A stretch of DNA of 64,000 nucleotides from Candidatus Micrarchaeia archaeon. Its GTDB lineage: Archaea; Micrarchaeota; Micrarchaeia; CABMEP01. Positions 32,281 to 57,626 of the stretch are shown here, one piece after another (within the stretch, counting starts at the first letter, position 1; each line of letters begins with the position of its first letter). The DNA lies in contig JAVZXS010000001.1 in the NCBI GenBank assembly GCA_038886535.1, positions 64,001 through 128,000 of the forward strand, given 5' to 3'. A program made the position numbers and the translations under genes. The notes under the pieces are model-generated. The model saw only the letters and a program-made list of their open reading frames with translations. It was not told the DNA's origin and made no database searches.

Positions 32281-32796
32281 ATGATTCCTAGAGTGATCGG
32301 GATGGTAGAAAAGGTTTCAAGAAAAAGTAAAAAAATAAAAGTAGGATGGTTCACATTCACATGCTGCGAAGGTTGTGCTATTATATTCATAGAGCTTTTG
32401 AATGACAGATTTAAGGAATGGTCTGAAAAGATTGAATTCAGACATTTTAAAATCCTCAAATCTAAGAATGATTTAGACGAACTTGATCTTGCGATCGTAG
32501 AAGGCGCAATATCAACAAAAGACGAGGTTAATCTTTTGAAAGAAATAAGAGAAAAATCAAAATTTGTTATGGCTGTAGGTTCTTGTGCTCTTACAGGCAT
32601 GCCAGCAGGATTAAGGAACAATTTCGACAATGAGAAAAAGAAAGAAATAGAGCAAATATTGAAAAAATTTGATTACTTGGATTCAGTTGAGCCAGTTTCA
32701 AAGTTTATCAGAGTTGATTTCAGAGTACCTGGTTGTCCAATGGATGGAAATCAATTTGTAAAAGAACTTTCTTCCTTCATCGAACAACATTCATGA
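32281..32796 (+). CDS. [NiFe]-hydrogenase small subunit, group 3-like, proximal cluster only
   Basis: TCCEGC, VEGAI, AVGSCA, VPGCP; ends soon after, no medial/distal Fe-S Cys; start may be ATG 32302. Confidence 0.9.
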   Translation: MIPRVIGMVEKVSRKSKKIKVGWFTFTCCEGCAIIFIELLNDRFKEWSEKIEFRHFKILKSKNDLDELDLAIVEGAISTKDEVNLLKEIREKSKFVMAVGSCALTGMPAGLRNNFDNEKKKEIEQILKKFDYLDSVEPVSKFIRVDFRVPGCPMDGNQFVKELSSFIEQHS

Positions 32797-32820
32797 TTTC
32801 AAATAACTAAAGGTGATTAT

Positions 32821-34110
32821 ATGCATAATATTTCAGATATATCTATAAAAGATTTGAGCAAAATTGAAGGACATGCAAGTGTAGAAATAAAAATAAAAAG
32901 CGGAAAAGTGGAAAGTGCTAAATTGAAGATAGTGGAAAATAAACGATTTTATACTCAGGCAATAAGAGGAATGAGTATAGATAATATATATTCTATAGTT
33001 TCAAGAATATGTGGTACATGCAGCATTTCCCATATGACATGCTGCATAGAAGCGATTGAAAATTCATTAGGGATCGAGCCATCAGAACAAACAATGAAGC
33101 TAAGACATCTTTCAATGTTCGGTACAATTCTCAGGGACCATGCAATGCATTTATACATGTTTTGTCTTCCAGATATATTCAATAAAGATTCCATATTGGA
33201 TTTTGACAAGAAACAAATGAAAATAGTTGAAAACGGCCTTAAGGTAAAAAAAGCAGCAAATAATCTTGCAACCATTGTTGCAGGAAGAGCGGTACATGCG
33301 CTTTATCCTAGGATTGGAGGTTTTTCATCTGTACCAAGCAAGGATTCAATTAAAAATTCAATTTCAGAGCTTGCTTCTGTAAGAGAACACGTCATTGATC
33401 TTGTAGAACTATTTTTTGATTCTCAATTTGAATTTTTCTGCAGTGCAAGGAACGTTGCATTAGTGGATAAAAAATTTAACTTTGTAGAAGGTAGGATACA
33501 GGATTCCACTGGATTGAAAGTGGAGGAAAATGATTTTCCAGAGCATCTGCATAGAGTTGTCATTCCTTATTCGCAAGCAACAGGTTTTAAGTTCAAAGGT
33601 GAGGAATATATTGTCGGTTCACTGTCAAGGTTAAATCTTAATCTACAAAATATGCATAGTGATACCTTAAGAGATTTATCTGAGTTTACATCTGTATTTC
33701 CTTCAAAAAATATATTTCATAACAATCTTGCACAGGCTATAGAAATGTTACATTGCATAGATGCCTCAATAGAGATACTAGAAAATAGCAACTTTAAGGA
33801 AGAAAAATTACCAGATCTAACCAAATATAAAGAAAAAAAGGGAAAGGGCATTGGTGTGGTAGAAGCGCCGAGAGGCACTCTGTATTATGAGTTAAATATA
33901 GATAAAGGAATTGTAAAAGATGGATTGCTTGTCATTCCAACAGCCCAGAATCAGGTTAATATGGAAAGAGACATCAAAGAATTAGTGCAACAAAACCTAG
34001 ACGAAGGATTAGATAGGCATACTATTGAACACAACATAGAGAAACTAATAAGAGCATATGATCCATGCATGTCTTGCGCAAGTCACTTTTTAAGGGTTAG
34101 ATGGAGCTAA
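32821..34110 (+). CDS. [NiFe]-hydrogenase large subunit, group 3b/3d-like
   Basis: KIEGH, L1 RICGTCSISH, EAPRGTL, L2 YDPCMSCASH plus cleavable tail FLRVRWS. Confidence 0.95.
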   Translation: MHNISDISIKDLSKIEGHASVEIKIKSGKVESAKLKIVENKRFYTQAIRGMSIDNIYSIVSRICGTCSISHMTCCIEAIENSLGIEPSEQTMKLRHLSMFGTILRDHAMHLYMFCLPDIFNKDSILDFDKKQMKIVENGLKVKKAANNLATIVAGRAVHALYPRIGGFSSVPSKDSIKNSISELASVREHVIDLVELFFDSQFEFFCSARNVALVDKKFNFVEGRIQDSTGLKVEENDFPEHLHRVVIPYSQATGFKFKGEEYIVGSLSRLNLNLQNMHSDTLRDLSEFTSVFPSKNIFHNNLAQAIEMLHCIDASIEILENSNFKEEKLPDLTKYKEKKGKGIGVVEAPRGTLYYELNIDKGIVKDGLLVIPTAQNQVNMERDIKELVQQNLDEGLDRHTIEHNIEKLIRAYDPCMSCASHFLRVRWS

Positions 34111-34491
34111 AGTTTCATTTAATAATTTTTCTATCTCCTTAATTGCCTTTCTTTTTTTATATCCCATCGGAATAGCGAATATATTTATTTTCTTTATTTT
34201 TCCAATTTTTTTCATTATTTTCAATGTCATTCCAAGATCAAAATCATGCATCGAACATCTTCTATTCTCACATATTTCATCAATATTAGTTATCAATCTT
34301 ACATTCTCTACTCCATCTACAGTATCGATTATGTTGATTTCGTTTTCATCTTCTATTTCATCTGGGTATTCCGCAGGAATAAATTTAATCATTGGGAATT
34401 TTTTCTCTAACTCTGGAATTATTTCAAGAGGCAAGCTATCATTTTTTATTAGCGGATTTCCAAAGCAATAGACCTTCAAATGCTCATTCAT
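34090..34491 (-). CDS. Hydrogenase maturation protease-like protein
   Basis: CFGNPLIKND, IIDTV, SMHDFDL; adjacent to the large subunit. Confidence 0.8.
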   Translation of the reverse strand: MNEHLKVYCFGNPLIKNDSLPLEIIPELEKKFPMIKFIPAEYPDEIEDENEINIIDTVDGVENVRLITNIDEICENRRCSMHDFDLGMTLKIMKKIGKIKKINIFAIPMGYKKRKAIKEIEKLLNETLAPSNP

Positions 34492-34604
34492 TATTTCACT
34501 CTAAACAAAAACAAATAAAATAGGAAAAATAAATTAAGACGAAACAAAATTAAAATAAATTGAAAATAAAGGTCACCAATTTTTATCAATTTAAAGGTCA
34601 TCAA

Positions 34605-34838
34605 TTATATCTTTCTTTTTCCTTTGTCTTCGATATGTATGCAGTTGACAGGGCATGCCTCTGCAGCATCCTGATTGCATGCTATATCTTTAACTTCCAA
34701 TTCAAATACATTTCCATTCTTCTTAGCTCCAATCAATTCAGACTTGCCATCGCTCGCCATTTTCCAGTATTTTGAACATACTGCTGCGCATGTACCACAT
34801 CCAATGCATGCATCTCTATCGTGTATTATTTTTGCCAT
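34605..34838 (-). CDS. Monocluster ferredoxin
   Basis: CIGCGTCAAVC...ACPVNCI. Confidence 0.93.
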   Translation of the reverse strand: MAKIIHDRDACIGCGTCAAVCSKYWKMASDGKSELIGAKKNGNVFELEVKDIACNQDAAEACPVNCIHIEDKGKRKI

Positions 34839-34860
34839 TATAGCACCTCTATCAATCCAA

Positions 34861-35535
34861 TTAAATTAAGCTTTTATCATTATTTTTAACAGCTTCCTTT
34901 AAAACCTTAACGTTTTCATTATCCTTTCCGAATGATTCTTCAAGTATTTCTATAATCGTTTTTTGTTTTATTTTCAAATGTTTATTTTTGATTATCTTTC
35001 CTAAGAGATAGATATTAGAATACATATTACTGCCTGTAATTTGCTTTGTAATTTCAGATGCAGGATATATAAAAATCTCTTTAATGTGCGGTTTGATCCT
35101 TGTTTTGATTTCATCCAAAGAAGGATAGCTTATATTTTCTATATCCATCCTGGTAGGTTTGATCTGAATAGAATCTGAATATACAATCGTTTTTTCTTTA
35201 TTACAATATTTTATTAATGATTGTGTCTCAAGCGGCTCTAATGCTATTATTATGTCTGCAGACATATTTGGCACTATGGTTGTTTTCACGTTTTTTCCAA
35301 TCCTTAAGTGGAATTCAGTATGTCCAAATCTTTTGGCCAAACCATGGAGTTCGCTAGTCATAACGTTGTTTCCTTCTCTTTGAGCAGCCAATGAAATAAG
35401 GCTTCCTAGCGTCATTACTCCTTGTCCCCCAACACCGGTTATTATTATATTGATCTCTTCATTTTCATTTTTTTCGTTTTTATTGTTTTTAGATCTTCCA
35501 TTTTCTTTTCCATTCGGCATTTTTAACCACCACAA
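34861..35535 (-). CDS. iorB: Indolepyruvate:ferredoxin oxidoreductase beta subunit
   Basis: GVGGQG, SELHGLAKRFG, ALEPLE. Confidence 0.9.
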   Translation of the reverse strand: MWWLKMPNGKENGRSKNNKNEKNENEEINIIITGVGGQGVMTLGSLISLAAQREGNNVMTSELHGLAKRFGHTEFHLRIGKNVKTTIVPNMSADIIIALEPLETQSLIKYCNKEKTIVYSDSIQIKPTRMDIENISYPSLDEIKTRIKPHIKEIFIYPASEITKQITGSNMYSNIYLLGKIIKNKHLKIKQKTIIEILEESFGKDNENVKVLKEAVKNNDKSLI

Positions 35536-35536
35536 A

Positions 35537-37390
35537 TTAAGCTTTTTTATCTTCGCTTATTTTCGGTTTAATTGCACTATATGGACATATCTGCGAGCAT
35601 ACAGTGCATCCCCAACACATGTCCTCTGAGATATAGTATTTATTCTCCTTTTTATCATAATGAATTGCAGGACATCCATACTCTATACATCTTCCACATT
35701 TCTTACATAGCTCTTCATGAATTTGATAGATAGGTACTTTTATCTTGTTTTTTCTTGCGTTTCTCATAAACATTAATCTGCAAGGTTGCCTATAAACAAC
35801 AACCCTTACTCCTTTCTTTTCTTTAACTGCCTTCATTATTTCTTGAGATTTCTTAGTGTCAAAAGGATTAACTACATATACATCTGCACCCATTGCCCTG
35901 CAAACTTCTTCTATTGATATCTTAGGTGCGCTTTCACCACATCTTATTCCAGTTCCAGCATGCGGTTGTTGTCCGGTCATAGCTGTTGTGCCATTGTCAA
36001 GAATGATTATTATCATATCTGATTGATTGTATATCGCATTTGCGATCTCAGGTAATCCTGCATGGAAGAAAGTAGAATCACCCATAAATGAGACTACTGT
36101 CTTTCCAGTTGCCTTATGTATACCATGTGCAATTCCAGTTCCTGCGCCCATGGAAATGATATAATCTTGCATATCAATTGGATTATAAATTCCTAGAATA
36201 TAACATCCTATATCTCCACCATATGTGAGACCTCTTCCTAATACTTCTTTAGTGTTCCAGAAGCTAGCTCTATGTGGACAGCCCGGACATAGGATAGGAT
36301 CTCTCTTAAATACATCAGGCGGTGTTTTCTTTTCTTCAACTGGAGGAAGATTTAGAATGGAAACAATCGCATTTACAACCTTTTCAGTTCTCATCTCTCC
36401 TATTGGAGGAATAAGATCATTGCCATGCACTTTGATTTTCAATTCATTATCTGCAACTACAGATTTTACATGCTGGGCTACAAAATCTTCGATTTCTTCG
36501 ACAACCAATATATTTTTCAATTCAAATTCTTTAATAAATTCAGCAATCTTCTTCTTTGGATAAGGATAAAACGAAAGTTTTAGGATAGGTAATTTTCTAT
36601 TCAATCTATCACAAGCCTCTAATGCATAATTGAATGACACTCCAGTTGCTATTATACCAAGTCCTCCTTTATCTCCTTTTATTACTTTGTTAAATTCAGA
36701 TTTTTCGCTTTCTTCCTCTAACTTTAGCATTATATCATGAAGCTCTTTATGTCTGTCAATGATTTTTGGAGGCATTGTGTTCCATTTATCATCTTTCTTG
36801 AATTCTCCTTCCCCTAGACTCTTGCCTTTCTTTATCTCTCCAAGCTTGACAATTGATTTTCCATAAGCTACTCTAGTAGTCATTCTTATAATAGCAGGAA
36901 TTCCATATTTTTCAGAGAGTTCAAATGCAAATTTTGTGAAATCCTTAGCTTCCTGTGAGTTAGAAGGCTCAAGCATTGGCATGTGTCCTATTTTTGCAAA
37001 GAACCTTGTATCCTGTTCGCTTTGACCTGAACTCCAGCAGTTTGGATCATCTGAAAAAACAATAACCATTCCTCCTTTCACTCCATGATAAGCAAGCGGA
37101 AAGACGCTATCGGATGCTACATTGAATCCAAAATGCTTAAATGAAACCATGGATCTTAGACCTGAGAACGCGGCTCCTGCTGCAACTTCTGCAGCTACCT
37201 TTTCATTTGTGCAGTATTCAAAATAAACTCCGGTTTCTTTTGAAATCTTACAAAATAAGTCTCCAACCTCTGAAACAGGCGTTCCAGGGTAGGTTGTAGA
37301 TATAGAAATACCTGCTTCAAGTGCGCCTCTTACTATTGCCTCGTCTCCTAAAAGTAAAACATTGCCTTTCGGCTTGAGTACATCTTCCAT
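35537..37390 (-). CDS. iorA: Indolepyruvate:ferredoxin oxidoreductase alpha subunit
   Basis: YPGTP, NEKVA, LCPGCPHR, DIGCY, GDSTFFHAG, AMTGQQP, two C-terminal Fe-S motifs. Confidence 0.97.
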   Translation of the reverse strand: MEDVLKPKGNVLLLGDEAIVRGALEAGISISTTYPGTPVSEVGDLFCKISKETGVYFEYCTNEKVAAEVAAGAAFSGLRSMVSFKHFGFNVASDSVFPLAYHGVKGGMVIVFSDDPNCWSSGQSEQDTRFFAKIGHMPMLEPSNSQEAKDFTKFAFELSEKYGIPAIIRMTTRVAYGKSIVKLGEIKKGKSLGEGEFKKDDKWNTMPPKIIDRHKELHDIMLKLEEESEKSEFNKVIKGDKGGLGIIATGVSFNYALEACDRLNRKLPILKLSFYPYPKKKIAEFIKEFELKNILVVEEIEDFVAQHVKSVVADNELKIKVHGNDLIPPIGEMRTEKVVNAIVSILNLPPVEEKKTPPDVFKRDPILCPGCPHRASFWNTKEVLGRGLTYGGDIGCYILGIYNPIDMQDYIISMGAGTGIAHGIHKATGKTVVSFMGDSTFFHAGLPEIANAIYNQSDMIIIILDNGTTAMTGQQPHAGTGIRCGESAPKISIEEVCRAMGADVYVVNPFDTKKSQEIMKAVKEKKGVRVVVYRQPCRLMFMRNARKNKIKVPIYQIHEELCKKCGRCIEYGCPAIHYDKKENKYYISEDMCWGCTVCSQICPYSAIKPKISEDKKA

Positions 37391-42811: not shown

Positions 42812-44284
42812 TTAATATTGTCTAGCAATATAAACTACATGTTTTGCAGGTTTTCCGCAAACCACACATTTCTTATTTCCAAAAGGCTCTTCAACTTTGC
42901 CTATAAGAGTTCCTCTTACCTTTCCACCTTTTGTTTCATATTGTATCATGTCTCCGCATTCTTTTCCATCAGAATCAATAGAACAGATATTGACTCTTGC
43001 ATATCCCTTATCTTTGTCAAGAATATTCTTAATTTCTTGGATATTTTCTGCATTTTTTATTTTCCCCTCTAATTTAGATATTGATTTCTGCTTTAATCTG
43101 TTTATCATCTGCTCCTTTTCTTCCTCTATAACTTTGATCAGATCTTTATCCTCTATTCTTTTTCTTGTTCTTTCATCTCTTGGAACAAGAGTGACAAATT
43201 TTTCATTAACTTCTTTTTCTCCGATCTCTATTCTGAAAGGCACTCCTCTAAGCTCCCAGTCGGCATATTTGTAACCTGGCGTTTTATCTCTTTCATCTAA
43301 TATTACTTTATATCCTTTCTTTTCTAGTTTCTTTTTAGTGTCTTTACATTTATTAATTATTAATTTATTGTCAATCCCGCTCTTTACTATAGGAACTATC
43401 ACTACATCTACTGGCGCTACAGAAGGAGGAATAACTAATCCTCTATTATCACCATGAATAGATATAATCGCAGCCATTATTCTCCATATTCCAGGCCCAT
43501 AACATGTTTGATAGGCATGGAGTTCGTTGTTATCCTTGTCTTTGAATTTGATATTGAATCCTTTTGCAAAATTCTGTCCAAGATAATGTGTGCTTGCAAT
43601 CTGAAGAGTCTTTCCATCTGGCAGCAGTACATCAGTTGCATAAGTGTGCTCTGCACCAGGGAAAGTATCCCATTTAGGTCTTTGGAAGAACATGCATTCT
43701 ATTCCCAGCTGTTCTTTAATAACCTTTGTTGATATCATCATATCTTTTATTATCTGTTCTCTTGCTTCTTTTTCTGTTGCAAATGCATCATGTGCCTCTA
43801 TCCAAAGAAATTCTCTTCCTCTAAAGAAAGGACTGGTTTCTGCCTCATTTCTAAAGACAGTGCAGCTCTGATACAATTTTATAGGAAGATCGGTATAATC
43901 TCTTATCCATAAAGAGTACATTTGATACATTGCAGTTTCACTTGTTGGTCTAAGCGCAAGCTTTCTGTTTAATTTTTCAGTACCTTTTTCAGTTATCCAA
44001 AATACATTAGGAACAAATCCTTCTGCATGCTCTTTTTCGATTTCAAAGTTCTCTTCAGGAATTACTGTAGGAAAGAGTGTTGGCTCATGACCATCTTTCT
44101 CAAGTTCTGCTTCAAATAAAGCATATAATTTTTTGAATATCCTCATTGCCCATGGCTTATGTACGATGAATCCCTGCACATTGTATCTATTGTCAACCAA
44201 ATCTGCTGCATAAATAACTGTATTATACCATTCACTGAAGTTCCTGTCCTTGTCTTTGTCAAATTCTCTTCCAGCCATTGCCAT
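42812..44284 (-). CDS. proS: Proline--tRNA ligase (archaeal/eukaryotic type)
   Basis: FSEWY, LRPTSET, REFLWIEAH, HYLGQNFA, C-terminal ARQY; start moved to ATG 44284 (GGTG SD). Confidence 0.97.
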   Translation of the reverse strand: MAMAGREFDKDKDRNFSEWYNTVIYAADLVDNRYNVQGFIVHKPWAMRIFKKLYALFEAELEKDGHEPTLFPTVIPEENFEIEKEHAEGFVPNVFWITEKGTEKLNRKLALRPTSETAMYQMYSLWIRDYTDLPIKLYQSCTVFRNEAETSPFFRGREFLWIEAHDAFATEKEAREQIIKDMMISTKVIKEQLGIECMFFQRPKWDTFPGAEHTYATDVLLPDGKTLQIASTHYLGQNFAKGFNIKFKDKDNNELHAYQTCYGPGIWRIMAAIISIHGDNRGLVIPPSVAPVDVVIVPIVKSGIDNKLIINKCKDTKKKLEKKGYKVILDERDKTPGYKYADWELRGVPFRIEIGEKEVNEKFVTLVPRDERTRKRIEDKDLIKVIEEEKEQMINRLKQKSISKLEGKIKNAENIQEIKNILDKDKGYARVNICSIDSDGKECGDMIQYETKGGKVRGTLIGKVEEPFGNKKCVVCGKPAKHVVYIARQY

Positions 44285-44383
44285 GATAACACCTTTAAAA
44301 ACATAAGCATTAATATAATTAGTCAGAGAATATTTAAAAACAGTAATATAATAACCAATTATTTCGAGCAATGCGGTGGTCTT

Positions 44384-45667
44384 ATGGCGTATGAAGGATA
44401 TGTAGATTTGAAATATTCCCCATCCAAAGACGATTTAATATGCAGGTTTTATGTAGAGCCAAGATACGGAGTTTCGTTTGAGAGAGCAGCTAGTACAGTT
44501 GCGGCAGAATCAAGTATAGGAACATGGACAGATGTTCAGACTTCAAAGCCATACGTTAAAAAATTAGCAGCTTATGTTTTTCATTTAGATCCAAATTCAG
44601 GATATATTGATATAGCATATCCATTAGATGCATTTGAACCAAATAACATTCCTCAGATGCTTAGTAGCATTGCAGGAAACATATTTGGAATGAAGGAAGC
44701 AAACAATCTAAGACTTTATGATATAAAAATTCCAAAGAAAATGATGCAATGGTATGATGGACCAATGTTTGGTATACCTGGTGTTAGAAAATTACTCAAG
44801 GTTAAAACAAGACCTCTTCTTGGAACAATAATCAAGCCGAAAATGGGTTTAAATGTCAGGGATCATGCAAAGGTTGCTTATGAGGCATGGGTAGGCGGAT
44901 GTGATATAGTCAAGGATGACGAAAATTTAGCAAGTCAGAAATTCAATAATTTTGAAAAAAGGGTGAAAGAAACATTAAAGTTAAGAGACAAAGCAGAGAA
45001 AGAAACAGGCGAAAAGAAGATATATATGCCAAACATAACTGCTTCTGGAAAAGAAATGGAAAGAAGAGCAAAATTTGTAAAGGATCATGGTGGAGAATAT
45101 GCGATGGTTGATATAATTACTGTTGGGTGGAGCGCTTTGCAAGATTTGAGGGATTCAAATAACAAACTTAATTTAGTAATTCATGAACATAGAGCGGGCC
45201 ATGCTGCAATCACAAGAAATCCAAAGCACGGAATATCTATGCTTACAATAGCGAAACTTACAAGGATGCTTGGGTTTGATCAATTGCATGCAGGGACAAT
45301 AGTTGGAAAGATGGAAGGGGGATTGGAAGAGGTTCAAGATGTTGTAAGTGCGTTAAAAGAAAAGGTAACTCCTCCAAGGGAAAAAACATTCACATTAGGG
45401 CAGGATTGGTATGGTGTTAAACCTTGCTTCCCAGTTGCATCTGGAGGTCTTCATCCATTAATGTTTCCTGTAATTACAAAGTACTTAGGAAAAGACTTAA
45501 TCCTACAAGCTGGAGGAGGAATACATGGACACCCTCAAGGAACAAGAAGAGGAGCAACTGTTGCGAGAGCTGTATTAGAGGCAGTGGATCAAGGAATAGC
45601 GCTTGAGGATTCAAAGGATCCATTAATAAAGGAAGCAATCGAGATCTGGGGCAAACATAAGTTCTAA
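44384..45667 (+). CDS. rbcL: Form III RuBisCO large subunit
   Basis: AAESSIGTW, IKPKMG, GGCDIVKDDE, HRAGH, GKMEG, SGG, QAGGGIHGHP; start moved to ATG 44384. Confidence 0.96.
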   Translation: MAYEGYVDLKYSPSKDDLICRFYVEPRYGVSFERAASTVAAESSIGTWTDVQTSKPYVKKLAAYVFHLDPNSGYIDIAYPLDAFEPNNIPQMLSSIAGNIFGMKEANNLRLYDIKIPKKMMQWYDGPMFGIPGVRKLLKVKTRPLLGTIIKPKMGLNVRDHAKVAYEAWVGGCDIVKDDENLASQKFNNFEKRVKETLKLRDKAEKETGEKKIYMPNITASGKEMERRAKFVKDHGGEYAMVDIITVGWSALQDLRDSNNKLNLVIHEHRAGHAAITRNPKHGISMLTIAKLTRMLGFDQLHAGTIVGKMEGGLEEVQDVVSALKEKVTPPREKTFTLGQDWYGVKPCFPVASGGLHPLMFPVITKYLGKDLILQAGGGIHGHPQGTRRGATVARAVLEAVDQGIALEDSKDPLIKEAIEIWGKHKF

Positions 45668-45754: not shown

Positions 45755-47296
45755 ATGGGAGAGATCGGATATAAGAGTCCATACGATGCAGTTGAAGCTT
45801 TCCAGCATAAAATAAATTTAGAATGGCCATTAACAAAGGCATTGATAGAAACAGGAAAGGAGCTTTATAATGAAGGATATTATTTTGTAAGCCATAAATA
45901 CATATTAAAAAACAATCTTCTTGTTTTAAACAGAAGCAATGGCGCCGAATCGAATTTCTTCCTTTTCATAAAAGCAAGAAGTAAGAGTGAACTTGATGTC
46001 TTTTTCAGCAATCCATCAAAAGACAAAAGTGTTAAAAGAGAAGATCTGATTCTTCATCATTCTGTAAAGTCATCAAATAATAAAGATGAAATCATTCAAG
46101 GTATTCGCAAAGTAATTGCAAAAATTAAAGCTTATTCTGAAATGAAGCCATTAAATGAATATTGGGGCAATCTACATTCACATATAGGCACTATTAATGG
46201 AGAAAGAGTCTGGGATGATGGAATAACAGAAGATGAAAACTGGTTCCTTCAATCAATGCTTTGGCATCATGATTTTCATGCATTAACATCACATAATTGG
46301 ACGCATAATGAGGAAAGATTAAAATTTATAGATGAGATGTGCTCTTCTGCAAATATTGTTTTTATTCCTGGTTGGGAAAATACTACAACAGTAAAAGACA
46401 GAGTGAAATCACCCCATATCTTGGTTCTATGTAAGAACATTCAAACAGCAATGAAGGCTAAGTATGAATTTCTCTCAAAGAAATTAGAAGGAAGAGAAGG
46501 CGTGGTGACACCAGTTCTCGTGGGGGTGCCAGGTCCTTATAAAAAACATTTACATTACCTCAAGTCTCTCCATGATAATCTTGAAGCTGCTTTGATTATA
46601 GCTCATCCATCCTCGCAAAATGCAGGAATAGATATATTAGATCCATCTATCTTTGAATTACTAGGAGAAAAAGAAACTCTGGAAATACTTTTCAATTTTG
46701 CAGATGGTATAGAACAATTCAATTTTCATGAAGTAAAATCAGGAATGGCAAGAAATCCAACAATAAGTAAATTTATACCTATAGAAGGAGAGAATAAACA
46801 TCCTCTTTCACATATGGTTGTTAATTACTTTGTAGGCGAACACGGAAAGAAAATAGGTTTGTTAACATTTGCAAACCAAGATGACCATTATCAACCAAAT
46901 ATAGATTCAGGCTTAATAAGTGATTATTCATATGGATACAATTCACTGGTTCTTAAAGTTGAAACATTCAAGCATTTCCAGACGCTTGGAAGGAAATTCA
47001 ATTCAGAAGAATTTATTCATGCTTTAATAAAAAGAAAAATGCCGAATTGCGAAGAGGAAATAGAAATAAAGCCAGTTGCATTTTTAGAAATTAGGGAAAA
47101 TAAAGACATTGATTTTTGGGAGAATAGAAAGAAATCAAATATTGAAAAAATAAAGGAATGGATAAATACACAGCCAGGATATTATTGGAATATAGCTAAG
47201 CTTCAACTTAAATATTGGTTTGGTAACAAGGAGCAGAAGAAAGAAATTATGAATGAATTAGAAAAGGCAAAATCATATAACGAATCTCCTAAATAA
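45755..47296 (+). CDS. PHP-domain metallo-phosphoesterase-like protein with unknown N-terminal domain
   Basis: NLHSH..DDG, LTSHN, PGWE, PHIL, IIAHP, DGIEQFN, QDDH motif order. Confidence 0.7.
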   Translation: MGEIGYKSPYDAVEAFQHKINLEWPLTKALIETGKELYNEGYYFVSHKYILKNNLLVLNRSNGAESNFFLFIKARSKSELDVFFSNPSKDKSVKREDLILHHSVKSSNNKDEIIQGIRKVIAKIKAYSEMKPLNEYWGNLHSHIGTINGERVWDDGITEDENWFLQSMLWHHDFHALTSHNWTHNEERLKFIDEMCSSANIVFIPGWENTTTVKDRVKSPHILVLCKNIQTAMKAKYEFLSKKLEGREGVVTPVLVGVPGPYKKHLHYLKSLHDNLEAALIIAHPSSQNAGIDILDPSIFELLGEKETLEILFNFADGIEQFNFHEVKSGMARNPTISKFIPIEGENKHPLSHMVVNYFVGEHGKKIGLLTFANQDDHYQPNIDSGLISDYSYGYNSLVLKVETFKHFQTLGRKFNSEEFIHALIKRKMPNCEEEIEIKPVAFLEIRENKDIDFWENRKKSNIEKIKEWINTQPGYYWNIAKLQLKYWFGNKEQKKEIMNELEKAKSYNESPK

Positions 47297-49045: not shown

Positions 49046-50458
49046 TCAGATTTCACATTTTAGATTTTCTCTTCTAATTATTTCTCTCGCTGCAATCAAT
49101 CCCGTAACAGCAGCTGTAACTATTCCTCCACTTACCCCAGCTCCATCTCCTACAGTAAAGAGATTTTTGATCTGTTTACATTCCATATTTTTACTTATAT
49201 CTAATCTTACAGATTTGAACTTGATCTCAGGAGCATACAATAAGGTATGCTCTTGATTCACTCCAGGTATAACCCCAGAAAGCATGTCTAATCCCTCAAC
49301 TATGTCATTTACAATTCTTTCAGGCATTGCCATGCTTATATCTCCAGGAGTTACCTCTTTGTTTGTTGGTTCAACATAGCTCTTTTCAATTCTATCCCAA
49401 GTACTCCTTCTTCCTTTCTTGAGGTCGCCAAGTCTTTGAAGTATGGGTTTTCCACCACCGATTGTAGTTGCAAGCCTTGCAATGCTTTCTCCGTAGAGTG
49501 TTGTATTTTCAACCGGTTCTGTTAATTTCACTCTGACTAGAAATGCAAAATTAGTATTGTTTGATTTTTTATCCTTCATGCTATGGCCATTAACAGAGAC
49601 GAAGTCGCCATAGTTTTCAGTTATAACGAAGCCTTTAGGGTTGGTGCAAAAAGTTCTTACAAAATCATCATATTTTTTAGTAGTTATATGAAACTTAGGA
49701 TCCCAGTTTATTGAAGTAACCTCTTCCATAACTTCATTATTTACCTCAACCCTTACCCCAATATCCAAAGGACCATATTCATAATTTATTCTATATTTAT
49801 TTGCTAAATCAAGAAGCCATCTTGATCCAGCTCTTCCAGGCGCAAGTATTACGTAATCAGAATTAATCTCATATTCTTTATTGTTTTCAACTATCAATCC
49901 TTTTATTTTATTATCTTCTATTATCAAGTCTTTTGCCTTTGTTTTTATCTTTATTTCCACTCCATTATTTTCCATTTCTCTCTTTATATTTTGGACAACA
50001 GATGGAAGATGATCTGAGCCAACATGCTTTTGTTTTATAGGAATATACTTTATGCCTGCCTGCATAGCCTTTATCCTTAATTCCTCTGCCTTATGGTTTA
50101 CTTCTGCCTTAGTTTCCACTCCATTCTTAACCAAAACATTGTCTACATAAGCAATCAACTTTTCAGCATCGCTTCTGCTTGTGAATTCAAGCATGTTTCC
50201 TCCTATCTCTGGATCAAGGTTTATCTTTCCGTCAGAAAAAGTTCCGCTTCCACCCATTCCTTGAATATAATGTGGCGCTGCAGTAGATCCTCCATCTTTG
50301 ATCTTTTCAGATCTCTCTTTTATATCCTCTCCCATTTCAACCAAAACTACATTCATACCTGCTTTTCCTAAAAGATAGGATGCGAAAATTCCTGCTGGAC
50401 CAGCACCGACAACTATTACTTTCTTCATAACTATCCAGTCATCATTTTTTACAAACAT
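49046..50458 (-). CDS. NAD(P)/FAD-dependent oxidoreductase (COG2509-like)
   Basis: VVGAGPAG, GGSGTFSDGK, DIGVRVE, RTFCTNP, YAPEIKF, GDGAG; start may be 50428. Confidence 0.9.
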   Translation of the reverse strand: MFVKNDDWIVMKKVIVVGAGPAGIFASYLLGKAGMNVVLVEMGEDIKERSEKIKDGGSTAAPHYIQGMGGSGTFSDGKINLDPEIGGNMLEFTSRSDAEKLIAYVDNVLVKNGVETKAEVNHKAEELRIKAMQAGIKYIPIKQKHVGSDHLPSVVQNIKREMENNGVEIKIKTKAKDLIIEDNKIKGLIVENNKEYEINSDYVILAPGRAGSRWLLDLANKYRINYEYGPLDIGVRVEVNNEVMEEVTSINWDPKFHITTKKYDDFVRTFCTNPKGFVITENYGDFVSVNGHSMKDKKSNNTNFAFLVRVKLTEPVENTTLYGESIARLATTIGGGKPILQRLGDLKKGRRSTWDRIEKSYVEPTNKEVTPGDISMAMPERIVNDIVEGLDMLSGVIPGVNQEHTLLYAPEIKFKSVRLDISKNMECKQIKNLFTVGDGAGVSGGIVTAAVTGLIAAREIIRRENLKCEI

Positions 50459-50587
50459 ATTTTAATCTATCTAATCTTCACTGCGAATTTTTTCTCATTT
50501 TAATTTTAAATTGAGAAATAGTGATTCATTAGGTTCTAATATGATAATACTTTAAAATTTTATGTTCAATTTGTTTTTATTAAATTT

Positions 50588-51241
50588 TTGGTGATAAATT
50601 TGGAATCAATTTTCAATGATATAAAGAGAGGTAGACCTGTTCTTGTATATGAACCTGAAGAAGATGAATTTTCTATGATGATTTTGGCAAATAAAATGAA
50701 TATAAGTAAGATGCGTCTTATGAAGAAATACGCTTCTGGAGATATCGGAGTAGCTATATCTTATGAACTTGCCTCAAAAATAAAAATCCCATTTCTTCAT
50801 GAGTTAATTATTTCTCATAAAAAGAAAATTCCAAACATAAAAAAAAGCAGTTTATCTTTACTTATTGACCATGTTAAGGCGAAAACAGGATCATCAGATA
50901 AAGATAAATTATTATTAATTAAAGAAATAGCATCTGCTGCTAAGAGTAAAAATTATGAAAAATTTGTCAAAAATATTTACATTCCAGGTCATCTTAAATT
51001 TTTTATTGCAGCAAAAGGTCTTTTAGATTCAAGACAAGGTCATACAGAATTAAATGTAGCACTTGCTAGATTAAGTGGCCTTAAACCTCACGAAGTAGCA
51101 ATAGTAATGTGTTCTCTTCGAAATCCAAAAAATGGAAAAATGATTACTAAGAAAGACTTAAATAAATTTTCTGACTTAAAAAAATTGCCAATAATTGATA
51201 GAGATGTAATCTTAAGATATTGGAGAGAAGAGTATGGATAA
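50588..51241 (+). CDS. Divergent RibB (DHBP synthase)-fold protein
   Basis: GRPVLVY, TGSSDKD, PGH, RQGHTE; lacks the usual RE(G/N)E(T/G)D acidic motif and has CSL for CE. Confidence 0.75.
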   Translation: MVINLESIFNDIKRGRPVLVYEPEEDEFSMMILANKMNISKMRLMKKYASGDIGVAISYELASKIKIPFLHELIISHKKKIPNIKKSSLSLLIDHVKAKTGSSDKDKLLLIKEIASAAKSKNYEKFVKNIYIPGHLKFFIAAKGLLDSRQGHTELNVALARLSGLKPHEVAIVMCSLRNPKNGKMITKKDLNKFSDLKKLPIIDRDVILRYWREEYG

Positions 51242-52169
51242 TATTCTTAAAAAGCTGTATATGATTAGATACTTTGAAGAAAAAGTTGCTGAATTGCATA
51301 AAGAAGGAATTGTTAACGGAACAGATCATTTCAGTACAGGTCAAGAAGCTATTCCAATAGGAGTTTGTTCACACTTAAGGAAAAGTGATATAGTTACATG
51401 CGGACACAGAGTATATCACATCGCACTGAGTTGTGGGTTGAAACCAGAAAAAATTTTTGCAGAACTACTTGGAAAAACAACAGGATATAATAAAGGATAT
51501 GCGGGAGCGATGCATTTTTCATCAAAAAGTGAAGGCTTTTGGGGAGCTAACGGAATAGTAAGTGCTAATGTAGCTATTTCTAGTGGTATAGCATTAAGTT
51601 TAAAGGTACAAAAAAGTAATTCTATTGTTGTAACATTTCTTGGAGATGGTGCTACAACACAAGGTATATTTCATGAAACTCTTAATATGGCCTCTCTTTG
51701 GAATTTACCAATACTTTTTGTTTGTGAAAACAACTATTGGGCTCAATCAACATCTATAAAAGAACATTCTGCCGTAATAGATCTTGCAAAGAAGGTAAAA
51801 GGAGCATATAATATAGAATCTTTAAGAGTAGATGGAACAGATATAAATAAAGTGATGAAGAGTAGCAAGATAGCAATAGATAAAGTTAGAAAAGGAAAAC
51901 CTGTGTTTATAGAATTTTTGACATACAGACAATGCGGACATTCAATAAATGATGTTGATAAATCATATTTCACAAAAGAATATATAAGAAAAGCAAAACT
52001 AAATGATCCAATAATAAAATATGAGAGATATCTTATTAAGAAGAAATTAATAACGAGAGAAAAAATTGAAGAGTTAAAGAAGGAAATAAAGGAGCAGCTT
52101 GAAAAAGATCTAATTGCAGCTAAAAATGCTAGATTGACCGAATTAAATGAAATAGAGGTTTTTAAATGA
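51234..52169 (+). CDS. TPP-dependent dehydrogenase E1 alpha (acetoin/pyruvate dehydrogenase type)
   Basis: GQEA, HR, ELLGK..G..KG.AGAMH, GANGIV, GDGA...ENN TPP motif, TYRQCGHS. Confidence 0.92.
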   Translation: MDNILKKLYMIRYFEEKVAELHKEGIVNGTDHFSTGQEAIPIGVCSHLRKSDIVTCGHRVYHIALSCGLKPEKIFAELLGKTTGYNKGYAGAMHFSSKSEGFWGANGIVSANVAISSGIALSLKVQKSNSIVVTFLGDGATTQGIFHETLNMASLWNLPILFVCENNYWAQSTSIKEHSAVIDLAKKVKGAYNIESLRVDGTDINKVMKSSKIAIDKVRKGKPVFIEFLTYRQCGHSINDVDKSYFTKEYIRKAKLNDPIIKYERYLIKKKLITREKIEELKKEIKEQLEKDLIAAKNARLTELNEIEVFK

Positions 52170-53086
52170 AATATATCGATGCGATTAGAAATGTAATAAT
52201 AAATGAAATGGAAAATAATGAAAAGATAATTGTCATGGGACAAGATATTAGAGAGTGGGGAGGTTCCTCTGGGCTATTTAAAGGCCTAGATAAAAGGTTT
52301 AAAGGTAGAATAATAAACACACCTATTTCAGAAGCAGCAACCGTAGGTATAGGAATCGGGGCAGCAATGAACGGAATGAGACCAATAATAGAATTTACTT
52401 TCTTTGATTTTCTACTTTGTGCAGCCGATCCTATAATCAACCATGCTGCAAAAATAAAAGCTCTTTCTAATGGAGATTTTAATGTTCCTTTAATTATAAG
52501 AGGAGTTCTATCATCTCATAGAGGTTATGGTGCAACTCATTCGCAAAATTTAGAATATATCTTCATGTGTCCAGGACTTAATGTTGTATATCCTTCAAAT
52601 CCAGATGATGCAGCAGGGCTTATGAGATATGCACTAAATCAGAGTGATCCTGTTTTATTCATCGAGCATAAACTTTTGCACAACATGGAAGGAGGGGTTA
52701 CATCAGAATCAGTACCATTTGGAAAGGCTAAGATAAGGCAGAAAGGTAAGAATCTGGGGATTATTACATATGGAAGATTAGTTCCAATTGTAGAAAGAAT
52801 AATTAAAGATATGGATGTTGAATTGCTTGACTTAAGGTCATTAAATCCTTTAGATAAAGAATCGATAATTGCAATTAGTAGAAAAACAGAAAAAATTCTT
52901 ATAATAGAAGATGGTATCGGATTTGTTGCATCTAAAGTTGCAGCTATAGTGCATGAAAACTCAAACGCAAAGGTAAAAATAATGCATGCAAAAGAGTTTC
53001 CAATTCCTGCTGCCAAAAATTTGGAAAATTATGTTTTACTTACAGATGACAAAATTACAGAAGTAATAACCTCTTTTATTAAATGA
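52166..53086 (+). CDS. TPP-dependent dehydrogenase E1 beta
   Basis: NTPISEA, GMRPIIE, GATHSQ, DPVLFIEHK, DLRSLNPLD. Confidence 0.92.
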   Translation: MKYIDAIRNVIINEMENNEKIIVMGQDIREWGGSSGLFKGLDKRFKGRIINTPISEAATVGIGIGAAMNGMRPIIEFTFFDFLLCAADPIINHAAKIKALSNGDFNVPLIIRGVLSSHRGYGATHSQNLEYIFMCPGLNVVYPSNPDDAAGLMRYALNQSDPVLFIEHKLLHNMEGGVTSESVPFGKAKIRQKGKNLGIITYGRLVPIVERIIKDMDVELLDLRSLNPLDKESIIAISRKTEKILIIEDGIGFVASKVAAIVHENSNAKVKIMHAKEFPIPAAKNLENYVLLTDDKITEVITSFIK

Positions 53087-56870: not shown

Positions 56871-57626
56871 TCATTTTTTGTTTATTCTTTTAACTATCTC
56901 TTGGCAAAGCTTCTTTGGATCGTCACTATTTTCTAATATTGTTCCAATTTGTATAATATCTGCGCCAGCATTAACAACATTTTCAGCTTCCTCAGGAGTT
57001 TTTATTCCACCTGCAATTATAAGTGGAATATTTATTGTCTTCTTTACCATCGATATCATTTCAAGGGGAACATGCCCTACTTTAGATGCTGATCCAACAT
57101 CCATAAGTATGAATTTTGATCCAAGATATTCACCAGCTAGCGCTAATGCAGCTCCTATCTTAGGTCTGTCACGAGGCACAAGATTAACATCTCCCACCCA
57201 ACCTACAGAACCACCTGGTTCAACAACAATATATCCAATGGATAATGGTTCTATTCCCATCTGTTTTATAACTGGGGACGCAAGCATCTGTGCCTGGCTT
57301 ATCCAATAAGGATTTCTGGAATTGAGAAGAGACATGAAATATACTGCATCTGCATATTTAGTTAGGGTTGCAATGTTTCCTGGGAACAATACAACAGGAA
57401 CCTTTACTTTTTCCTTAATCTTCTTTACAACCATATCTAGAAGCTCTCCTTGAACTCCTATTGAACCACCTACAAGTATCACTGCTGCCCCTCCTTCTGC
57501 TGCAGCAATAGCTGTTTTTATTGCATGTTCTATATCTTTATAATCCAGTGGATCTATCAATGCAAACAGAAGTTTCTCTTTTTTGTTTAATCTCTCTTTG
57601 ATGTATTTTTCAACTTCATATTTCAT
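56871..57626 (-). CDS. Geranylgeranylglyceryl phosphate synthase (group II)
   Basis: LIDP, LVGGS, LFPG, FMSLLNSRNPYW, GYIVVEPG, AGGIK. Confidence 0.93.
   Translation of the reverse strand: MKYEVEKYIKERLNKKEKLLFALIDPLDYKDIEHAIKTAIAAAEGGAAVILVGGSIGVQGELLDMVVKKIKEKVKVPVVLFPGNIATLTKYADAVYFMSLLNSRNPYWISQAQMLASPVIKQMGIEPLSIGYIVVEPGGSVGWVGDVNLVPRDRPKIGAALALAGEYLGSKFILMDVGSASKVGHVPLEMISMVKKTINIPLIIAGGIKTPEEAENVVNAGADIIQIGTILENSDDPKKLCQEIVKRINKK

Follow-up and report, generated by a model that had tools for sequence, protein, structure and literature searches.

A RibB-fold protein whose active site is rebuilt, encoded in a portable module with thiamine diphosphate-dependent E1 subunits in Candidatus Micrarchaeia

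RibB, the synthase of DHBP (3,4-dihydroxy-2-butanone 4-phosphate), is known from riboflavin synthesis alone, and two-subunit, thiamine diphosphate (ThDP)-dependent E1 enzymes are known mostly from lipoate complexes. According to two studies, RibB first forms a 2,3-diketone, with one metal on Glu39/His154 (PMC9305975, PMC13151069). Acetoin dehydrogenase (AcoAB)-type E1 takes diketones as donors, and related alpha/beta enzymes perform carboligation in vitro, branching keto sugars with pyruvate (PMC12247030). Here we analysed a locus where both protein types are encoded together, situated in a 64,000-nucleotide stretch (the window) of a Candidatus Micrarchaeia archaeon (assembly GCA_038886535.1, contig JAVZXS010000001.1, positions 64,001 to 128,000, forward strand). 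It consists of three overlapping genes for a protein of the RibB fold in which the active site is rebuilt, hereafter RibB*, and for E1alpha and E1beta.

The module was found to be real, conserved and mis-annotated as ribB plus pyruvate dehydrogenase (PDH). The three proteins very probably represent a dedicated unit in which RibB* is not a riboflavin enzyme, and RibB* would be a natural case of a new RibB function. Searches of an open-access library brought up no account of RibB and E1 being fused or sharing an operon, and neither did term look-ups in PMC5113843, PMC6389311 and PMC12892359, whose supplements may list the genes.

Recurrence of the gene triplet and its fusions

RibB matches were obtained in 17 of 61 genomes, and the four strongest were all within one genus (4/7 genomes), namely in G000, which is the source genome of the window (1.14 Mb, 88% complete), G002, G003 and G005. 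In each of the four, the closest E1alpha was located directly downstream of RibB*. The triplet occurs in three differing flanking contexts within the genus, its three genes being the sole genes in common between the G000, G002 and G003 regions, and the gene order is identical in the metagenome contig L042 from another subclade. Hence, E1alpha directly follows all five RibB* genes seen with DNA, and an E1 gene was present in none of 40 canonical ribB loci (38 genomes, flanks of about 1.5 kb). The overlapping stop and start codons pointed out in the first-pass annotation were confirmed in the sequence (Table 1); genes overlap likewise at the RibB*/E1alpha junction in L001, L020 and L042, and by 4 nt at the E1alpha/E1beta junction in L001, L020 and L021. 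A second ribB or E1 was not found in G000 at its 88% completeness, the genome having a single RibB-like gene and a single E1 pair; by the labels of relatives at 87-97% identity it is Micrarchaeia-like. Furthermore, 99 of 401 genomes in a draw from the phylum matched RibB at E <= 1e-30, and all 27 loci inspected beyond the genus were canonical.

Elsewhere the first two genes are fused. Among 150 listed profile matches, two had an E1alpha domain behind a RibB-like domain, and in a single-protein region search with the RibB* domain of P0047 all seven long homologues were RibB*-E1alpha fusions. There are consequently at least seven fusion clusters, which is probably an undercount. Six full-length fusions shared 46-69% mutual identity, with a short linker at the RibB*/E1alpha junction. 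Fusion P0033 is labelled Ca. Dojkabacteria, and P0185 has 12 of its 14 tryptophans where the other five have glycine (none such in those five), which suggests that P0185 comes from a lineage reading TGA as glycine. SR1 bacteria reportedly use this code. For WS6 and SR1, a RuBisCO of the nucleoside pathway and the lack of a pentose phosphate pathway have been reported (PMC5113843).

As the arrangement both recurs and is fused elsewhere, it is not due to chance. The three overlapping genes are a portable module, and the functional coupling of RibB* with E1 is well supported; the recurrence that the first-pass annotation had proposed to look for thus extends over four genus genomes, L042 and the fusion clusters. 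It should be added that for six further RibB*/E1alpha pairs the longest contigs were same-sized (25406, 3186, 17202, 2386, 2585 and 38690), which is circumstantial evidence of linkage. The context counts leave out P0004-P0006, P0008, P0010, P0019, P0022, P0102, P0171 and P0174. Pattern scans of genome and of metagenome contigs returned one locus each, far below the expectation from protein searches, and are therefore insensitive here. No relative was found in viral contigs, and a cluster-atlas lookup returned generic RibB and E1beta clusters only.

Active site of RibB* and lineage of its E1 partners

The first gene product belongs to the RibB fold (117 bits against PF00926) and scored below the equivalog cut-offs (131 vs 177 for TIGR00506; 98 vs 262 for PRK05773); four other members of its clade were also under the cut-off (78-168), and P0102 had no match at 1e-20. 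The AlphaFold model of RibB* (predicted local distance difference test, pLDDT, 90.7) had its best Foldseek match in 1pvw of M. jannaschii (E 1.6e-16, template modelling score 0.81, 30% identity). RibB* sequences were first chosen by motif, and an 89-row tree then gave exactly the same 23 as one clade (FastTree 0.986). Residues were counted in these 23 rows, which are related and hence not independent, and in 61 canonical rows, after five otherwise-degenerate rows (P0086, P0090, P0107, P0116 and P0124) were dropped. Positions marked Mj follow the alignment to 1pvw; other residue numbers of RibB* are counted from window position 50588.

The motifs TGxxDxD (as TGSSDKD), PGH, RQGHTE, YEPEEDEFS and CSL were present as described in the first-pass annotation. 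Its claim that the acidic loop is replaced stands for Mj D21, R25 and D30, each absent from all 23 RibB* rows and found in 60, 59 and 61 of the 61 canonical ones; in 23/23 rows the loop has shrunk by two residues, and yet the equivalents of Mj E26 and E28 are kept throughout. Similarly, the glutamate of the CE motif (Mj E185) is indeed lost (0/23 vs 61/61), while the loss of the cysteine (Mj C55; 1/23 vs 57/61) had been overlooked. We take Mj D30, C55, H147 and E185 to have roles in catalysis, and E185 to be the base of the first, enolisation step. T112, G113, R161, H164 and T165 (Mj) are also conserved in 23/23, so that the metal and phosphate ligands (E26, H164, R161, T165) are complete in every row, and H147, D118 and E166 remain in 22/23.

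New residues were fixed as well: Asp at Mj L53 (22/23; D52), Ser at I114 (23/23; S102), Lys at R119 (22/23), Ser or Thr at E185 (23/23; S/T176), and Lys or Arg at T149 (22/23) and M187 (21/23). In the model, beta-strands carry K137 two positions away from H135, and R178 equally far from S176, so that they should lie on the same face as these. With three acids lost and two bases gained, the ligand of RibB* is suggested to be more anionic than that of canonical RibB. Judged from the sequences, the site is rebuilt rather than decayed and under purifying selection, the ratio of nonsynonymous to synonymous substitution rates (dN/dS) being 0.14 against G005. A second, separate degenerate RibB group was also observed (P0090, P0107, P0116, P0124 and P0140), with I/S-T-E-L replacing GHTE; one sequence in the cluster of P0090 bears the label Ca. 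Heimdallarchaeota.

Both E1 subunits have intact motifs: in E1alpha the ThDP motif GDG...ENN, H32 (HFSTGQE), H58-R59 and H236 (CGHS), and in E1beta the catalytic-type E56 (TPISE) and H125 (HSQ). E1alpha carries the H-R pair of Aco-type proteins together with the PDH-like GHS motif, and the E1beta loop SHxGYGxTHSQ occurred in 4/4 cassette rows vs 0/32 reference rows. Genes 2 and 3 scored under the PDH equivalog cut-offs (295 vs 394 for TIGR03182; two fusions 227 and 239), and the E1 proteins are 33-44% identical to aco-like and pdhA plasmid proteins, the best plasmid matches (41-44%) being in aco-like operons. In the E1alpha tree (48 rows, the partial P0033 left out and the references being plasmid proteins known by annotation only), the 16 rows linked or presumed linked to the module formed one clade (100/100). 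Its sister, nearest among those sampled, consists of two pdhA-acsA-ACP proteins (95/90); aco-operon rows are placed elsewhere, and 16 other Micrarchaeia E1alpha join the branched-chain type. E1alpha thus stands apart from the ordinary PDH of the class, unlike the grouping that the first-pass annotation had named as a refutation, and the AcoA-like type assigned there was not borne out by the tree. E1beta likewise formed its own clade (4/36 rows) outside the Aco groups.

RibB* and E1alpha distances correlated over 14 linked pairs (rho 0.87, 0/5000 shuffles, inflated by kinship), and dN/dS against G005 was 0.17 for E1alpha and 0.09 for E1beta (first 240 codons). The predicted complex of RibB* with E1alpha/E1beta (score 0.00, mark 0.32) was counted neither way; the single-sequence fold of fusion P0183 had a pLDDT of 32.5. 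In G005 E1beta ends at 256 aa (L001:7564-8334) via a frameshift in an A-rich run, being either an assembly error or a pseudogene. In G003 the module is followed by resolvase and type I restriction-modification-like genes (L021:3907-9793), hinting at a mobile context.

Features of the locus are listed in Table 1 by window position. The true start of RibB* is probably the TTG at 50600 behind GGTGAT, giving 213 aa, and the database version of the protein starts there too. Three tandem, divergent deoxynucleoside kinase genes (PF01712; 53172-55570) come right after the module, as in G005, and a divergent FAD oxidoreductase is encoded at 49046-50458. Neither adjoins the module in G002 and G003, which ruled out the former as module members and the latter as a substitute for E3. 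The RuBisCO large subunit is encoded about 5 kb upstream (44159-45667), and a 513-aa ORF without a Pfam match, conserved in G005, is located at 45755-47296; its NLHSH is presumably a PHP-like metal motif. Genes for both subunits, small and large, of a [NiFe]-hydrogenase-like enzyme are found in the interval 32281-37390, along with those for a probable maturation protease and for the alpha and, probably, the beta subunit of indolepyruvate oxidoreductase.

Table 1. Features of the module and its upstream region, in window positions (ORF, open reading frame)
Feature	Position	Strand	Basis
RibB* (RibB-fold protein, rebuilt active site)	50588-51241	+	ORF of 217 aa from TTG; PF00926
E1alpha, module-specific clade	51234-52169	+	ORF of 311 aa; PF00676
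E1beta	52166-53086	+	ORF of 306 aa; PF02779+PF02780
Start/stop overlap ATGGATAA, 8 nt, RibB*/E1alpha	51234-51241	+	Read in sequence
ATGA overlap, E1alpha/E1beta	52166-52169	+	Read in sequence
GGTGAT, putative ribosome-binding-like site, 4 nt ahead of TTG 50600	50590-50595	+	Sequence; function inferred
AT-rich divergent intergenic region, presumed promoter region, with TTTAAAA at 50551-50557	50459-50599	.	Sequence only

Possible chemistry and rival explanations

Searches for host protein families covered the genus genomes (54-92% complete), and positive controls responded. As the first-pass annotation had noted for the neighbourhood, no partners of a lipoate complex or of riboflavin synthesis were detected genome-wide: E2 (PF00198) and the lipoyl domain (PF00364) were found in 0/5, the E3 dimerisation domain (PF02852) in 0/7 and lumazine/riboflavin synthase (PF00885) in 0/5 genomes. 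Enzymes forming ribulose 5-phosphate (Ru5P) were not found either (RpiA 0/5, RpiB 0/5, Rpe 0/6, 6-phosphogluconate dehydrogenase 0/5), nor were transketolase (0/6) or HPS (0/5) over the cut-off. Two candidates were rejected here: C1:268747, taken for a transketolase, is DXS, and the weak HPS match in G000 is a PcrB-family gene at window 56871-57626. On the other hand, the ribose 1,5-bisphosphate (R15P)-isomerase family was present in 6/6, RuBisCO in 5/7 and the ADP-forming acyl-CoA synthetase family in 6/6 genomes. Since the R15P-isomerase/RuBisCO nucleoside route is present and no Ru5P-forming enzyme was found, ribulose-1,5-bisphosphate (RuBP) is the only ribulose phosphate whose source is evident. 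In G000 (C2:22954-26712) an unusually long 941-aa ORF adjoins the R15P-isomerase-family gene, and the N-terminus of its product may resemble AMP phosphorylase.

Genes of the methylerythritol phosphate (MEP) pathway were detected in the genus (DXS 7/7, DXR 3/5, IspG 5/5), those of G000 being outside the window at C1:268747-270738, C1:238966-239373 and C2:43331-44494. Phosphoglycerate kinase (PGK) and DeoC/class I aldolase were each found in 0/7 genomes, which leaves DXS without evident supply of glyceraldehyde 3-phosphate (GAP). A motif scan for TIM, GAPDH, PK and others found enolase and a thioredoxin-reductase-like ORF, its misses being weak evidence. The occurrence of MEP genes in Micrarchaeota has been noted before (PMC12892359).

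Because RibB forms a diketone and AcoAB-type E1 uses diketones, we tentatively favour a two-step, redox-neutral, lipoate-independent cleavage of sugar phosphate, in which RibB* might eliminate the group at C1 of a ribulose phosphate and stop at the 2,3-diketone, and E1 might cleave the latter without lipoate. RibB* would bind ribulose phosphate, most likely RuBP from the nucleoside salvage route, through the kept Mg ligands (E25, H152) and the site for the phosphate at C5 (R149, H152, T153), enolise the sugar and then expel what C1 carries. K137 and R178, the basic residues gained, may bind the phosphate at C1, which would be an easier leaving group than hydroxyl, and the new D52 may act as base. 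As the residues for the later RibB steps are gone, the reaction would stop at 1-deoxy-2,3-pentodiulose 5-phosphate, which is intermediate 1 of RibB itself. The coupled or fused E1alpha2beta2 would then add ThDP to the diketone and cleave C2-C3, as AcoAB does with diacetyl, yielding acetate and GAP, or 3-phosphoglycerate and acetaldehyde. The net result would be a phosphoketolase-like, CO2-independent alternative to RuBisCO, possibly feeding GAP to the host DXS and MEP pathway. In its specific form, where a RibB repurposed as RuBP phospho-lyase would hand an AI-2-phosphate-like diketone to lipoate-free E1, this reading is more doubtful, and it is similarly doubtful that an undescribed ThDP-dependent, CO2-independent exit for pentose bisphosphate could be common to DPANN archaea and candidate phyla radiation (CPR) bacteria.

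Several observations weigh against elimination followed by cleavage. The loss of E185 may abolish even the first step, and its replacement as base by D52 is a guess. Three of the seven genus genomes have DXS and no module (G001, G004 and G006; 82, 92 and 84% complete), so that the module is not the only GAP source, and two of these three keep RuBisCO, which in turn was not found in the module-bearing G002 (54% complete), so there is no correlation between module and RuBisCO within the genus. The module flanks in G002 and G003 are unrelated to nucleoside salvage. A zinc alcohol dehydrogenase (ADH_N) that could consume acetaldehyde was found in 0/5 genomes, and the host searches were confined to genomes of the genus. 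Finally, dN/dS of the module (0.09-0.17) exceeds that of three neighbour genes (0.014-0.039, against G005), and together with the frameshifted E1beta this indicates an accessory module, perhaps in decay in G005.

The lineage of E1alpha also bears on a carboligase role, which we consider unlikely: E1 would decarboxylate pyruvate and transfer the acetyl-anion unit to a phosphorylated ketose or diketose that RibB* makes or presents. This would give either a sugar phosphate with a branch or a compound similar to 1-deoxyxylulose 5-phosphate, as with YerE, sugar-branching alphaKADH2 and DXS. Pyruvate-dependent sugar-branching alpha/beta enzymes are known (PMC12247030), the nearest sampled sister of E1alpha is of the pdhA type with the PDH-like GHS motif kept, and IorA as the sole match to the pyruvate oxidoreductase (POR) family in G000 implies few pyruvate sinks besides DXS and phosphoenolpyruvate synthase. 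However, the three genes are not accompanied by any for glycosyltransferases or nucleotide sugars, the host already has a canonical DXS, and the E1 tree is without a characterised sugar-branching enzyme. A comparably low probability is given to RibB* as a non-catalytic domain, binding sugar phosphate to regulate, present to or gate E1 acting as a lipoate-free decarboxylase of pyruvate or another 2-oxoacid. The N-terminal position in the fusions would suit a regulatory domain, and four to five residues of the catalytic loop are lost clade-wide while the phosphate and metal site stays; yet H147 is nearly invariant, and the polar gains fixed at active-site positions (D52, S102, S/T176 and the two basic ones) look like selection for new chemistry, though a new ligand would also explain them.

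Closest to the first-pass annotation is the quite improbable route in which RibB* would retain the conversion of Ru5P to the acyloin DHBP, for E1 to cleave into C2-ThDP and glycolaldehyde phosphate, as AcoAB does with acetoin. The RibB fold with its metal and phosphate ligands, the Aco-type H-R pair, the best plasmid matches in aco-like operons and the missing lumazine synthase, by which DHBP would need another sink, speak for it. The full reaction is nevertheless unlikely with D30, C55 and E185 lost clade-wide, the first and last of which are invariant in canonical rows; moreover, no source of Ru5P was found in G000, RuBP being the likelier pentose, and both E1 subunits fall outside the Aco groups. 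This DHBP/acetoin route is therefore less likely than the diketone one. More improbable still, the module could clear misfire products of RuBisCO or decay products of RuBP, such as xylulose bisphosphate and pentodiulose bisphosphate. According to PMC9833046, such bisphosphates and 2,3-diketones inhibit RuBisCO, and archaeal enzymes make xylulose bisphosphate; the gained basic residues would fit, and in both G000 and G005 RuBisCO is encoded about 5 kb upstream, but it is not beside the module in the G002 and G003 regions, and the known repair enzymes are phosphatases. It is very hard to maintain that chance has brought an ordinary ribB together with an equally ordinary E1 of PDH or acetoin type, or that the genes are decaying remnants. 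Database labels (DHBP synthase and E1) and the frameshift in G005 would agree with that, and it is largely refuted by the fusions and clade-wide substitutions, along with three contexts, matching clades and dN/dS below 0.2, and by the fact that for neither pathway were partner genes found.

If the cleavage of a RibB*-derived diketone by E1 is true, RuBP would have a third possible fate in minimal symbionts, and those lacking PGK and the pentose phosphate pathway could draw directly on scavenged nucleosides for isoprenoid synthesis or fermentation. The short route from C5 to C2 and C3 would also be of interest for isoprenoid and carbon-conserving engineering. The module is small (three proteins, or a fusion and a beta subunit) and the substrates are commercial, which makes it directly testable.

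Comparison with known systems

RibB* shares with archaeal-type RibB (MJ0055, 1pvw; PF00926, TIGR00506, PRK05773) the fold, the metal ligands E26/H164, E28, TG, H147 and RxGHTE. It differs in the lost residues, the shorter loop, the clade-wide gains and the scores below cut-off, and in being beside or fused to E1alpha wherever the context was seen, with lumazine synthase not found. In turn, the module E1 has the alpha/beta ThDP architecture and intact motifs of AcoAB and of PDH E1 of the PDH_E1_alph_y type, and differs by its separate clade, its distinct E1beta loop and the absence of detected E2, E3 and lipoyl proteins. In contrast, each of the 16 plasmid reference E1 loci either has E2 annotated or, for Thermus, shows an unannotated ORF of 82 aa behind E1beta, possibly encoding a lipoyl carrier.

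Phosphoketolase splits its substrate into C2 and C3 after dehydration, with both steps in one ThDP enzyme, whereas the module would distribute them over the RibB fold and E1. Sugar-branching alphaKADH2 (KbDH-alpha/beta, aldgamycin and avilamycin types) are alike as alpha/beta ThDP carboligases on keto sugars (PMC12247030); these act on deoxy-keto sugars in natural-product clusters, and the module is set apart by its gene context, as no deoxysugar or glycosylation cluster surrounds it in the G000, G002, G003 and G005 regions. The non-carboxylating pentose bisphosphate pathway of haloarchaea also disposes of RuBP without RuBisCO (PMC9700705), using a phosphatase, an aldolase and a reductase, while the module would use RibB-fold elimination and E1 cleavage.

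The E. coli RibB suppressors G108S and D113G offer a parallel, for alterations of the TG..D loop can divert RibB into supplying the MEP pathway through the nDXP route (PMC3424233, PMC8227265), and single ribB mutations suffice for this diversion (PMC3424233). The host of the module likewise encodes DXS, DXR and IspG, and in RibB* the Gly (23/23) and the Asp (22/23) of that loop are retained, with their neighbours changed to Ser (23/23) and Lys (22/23).

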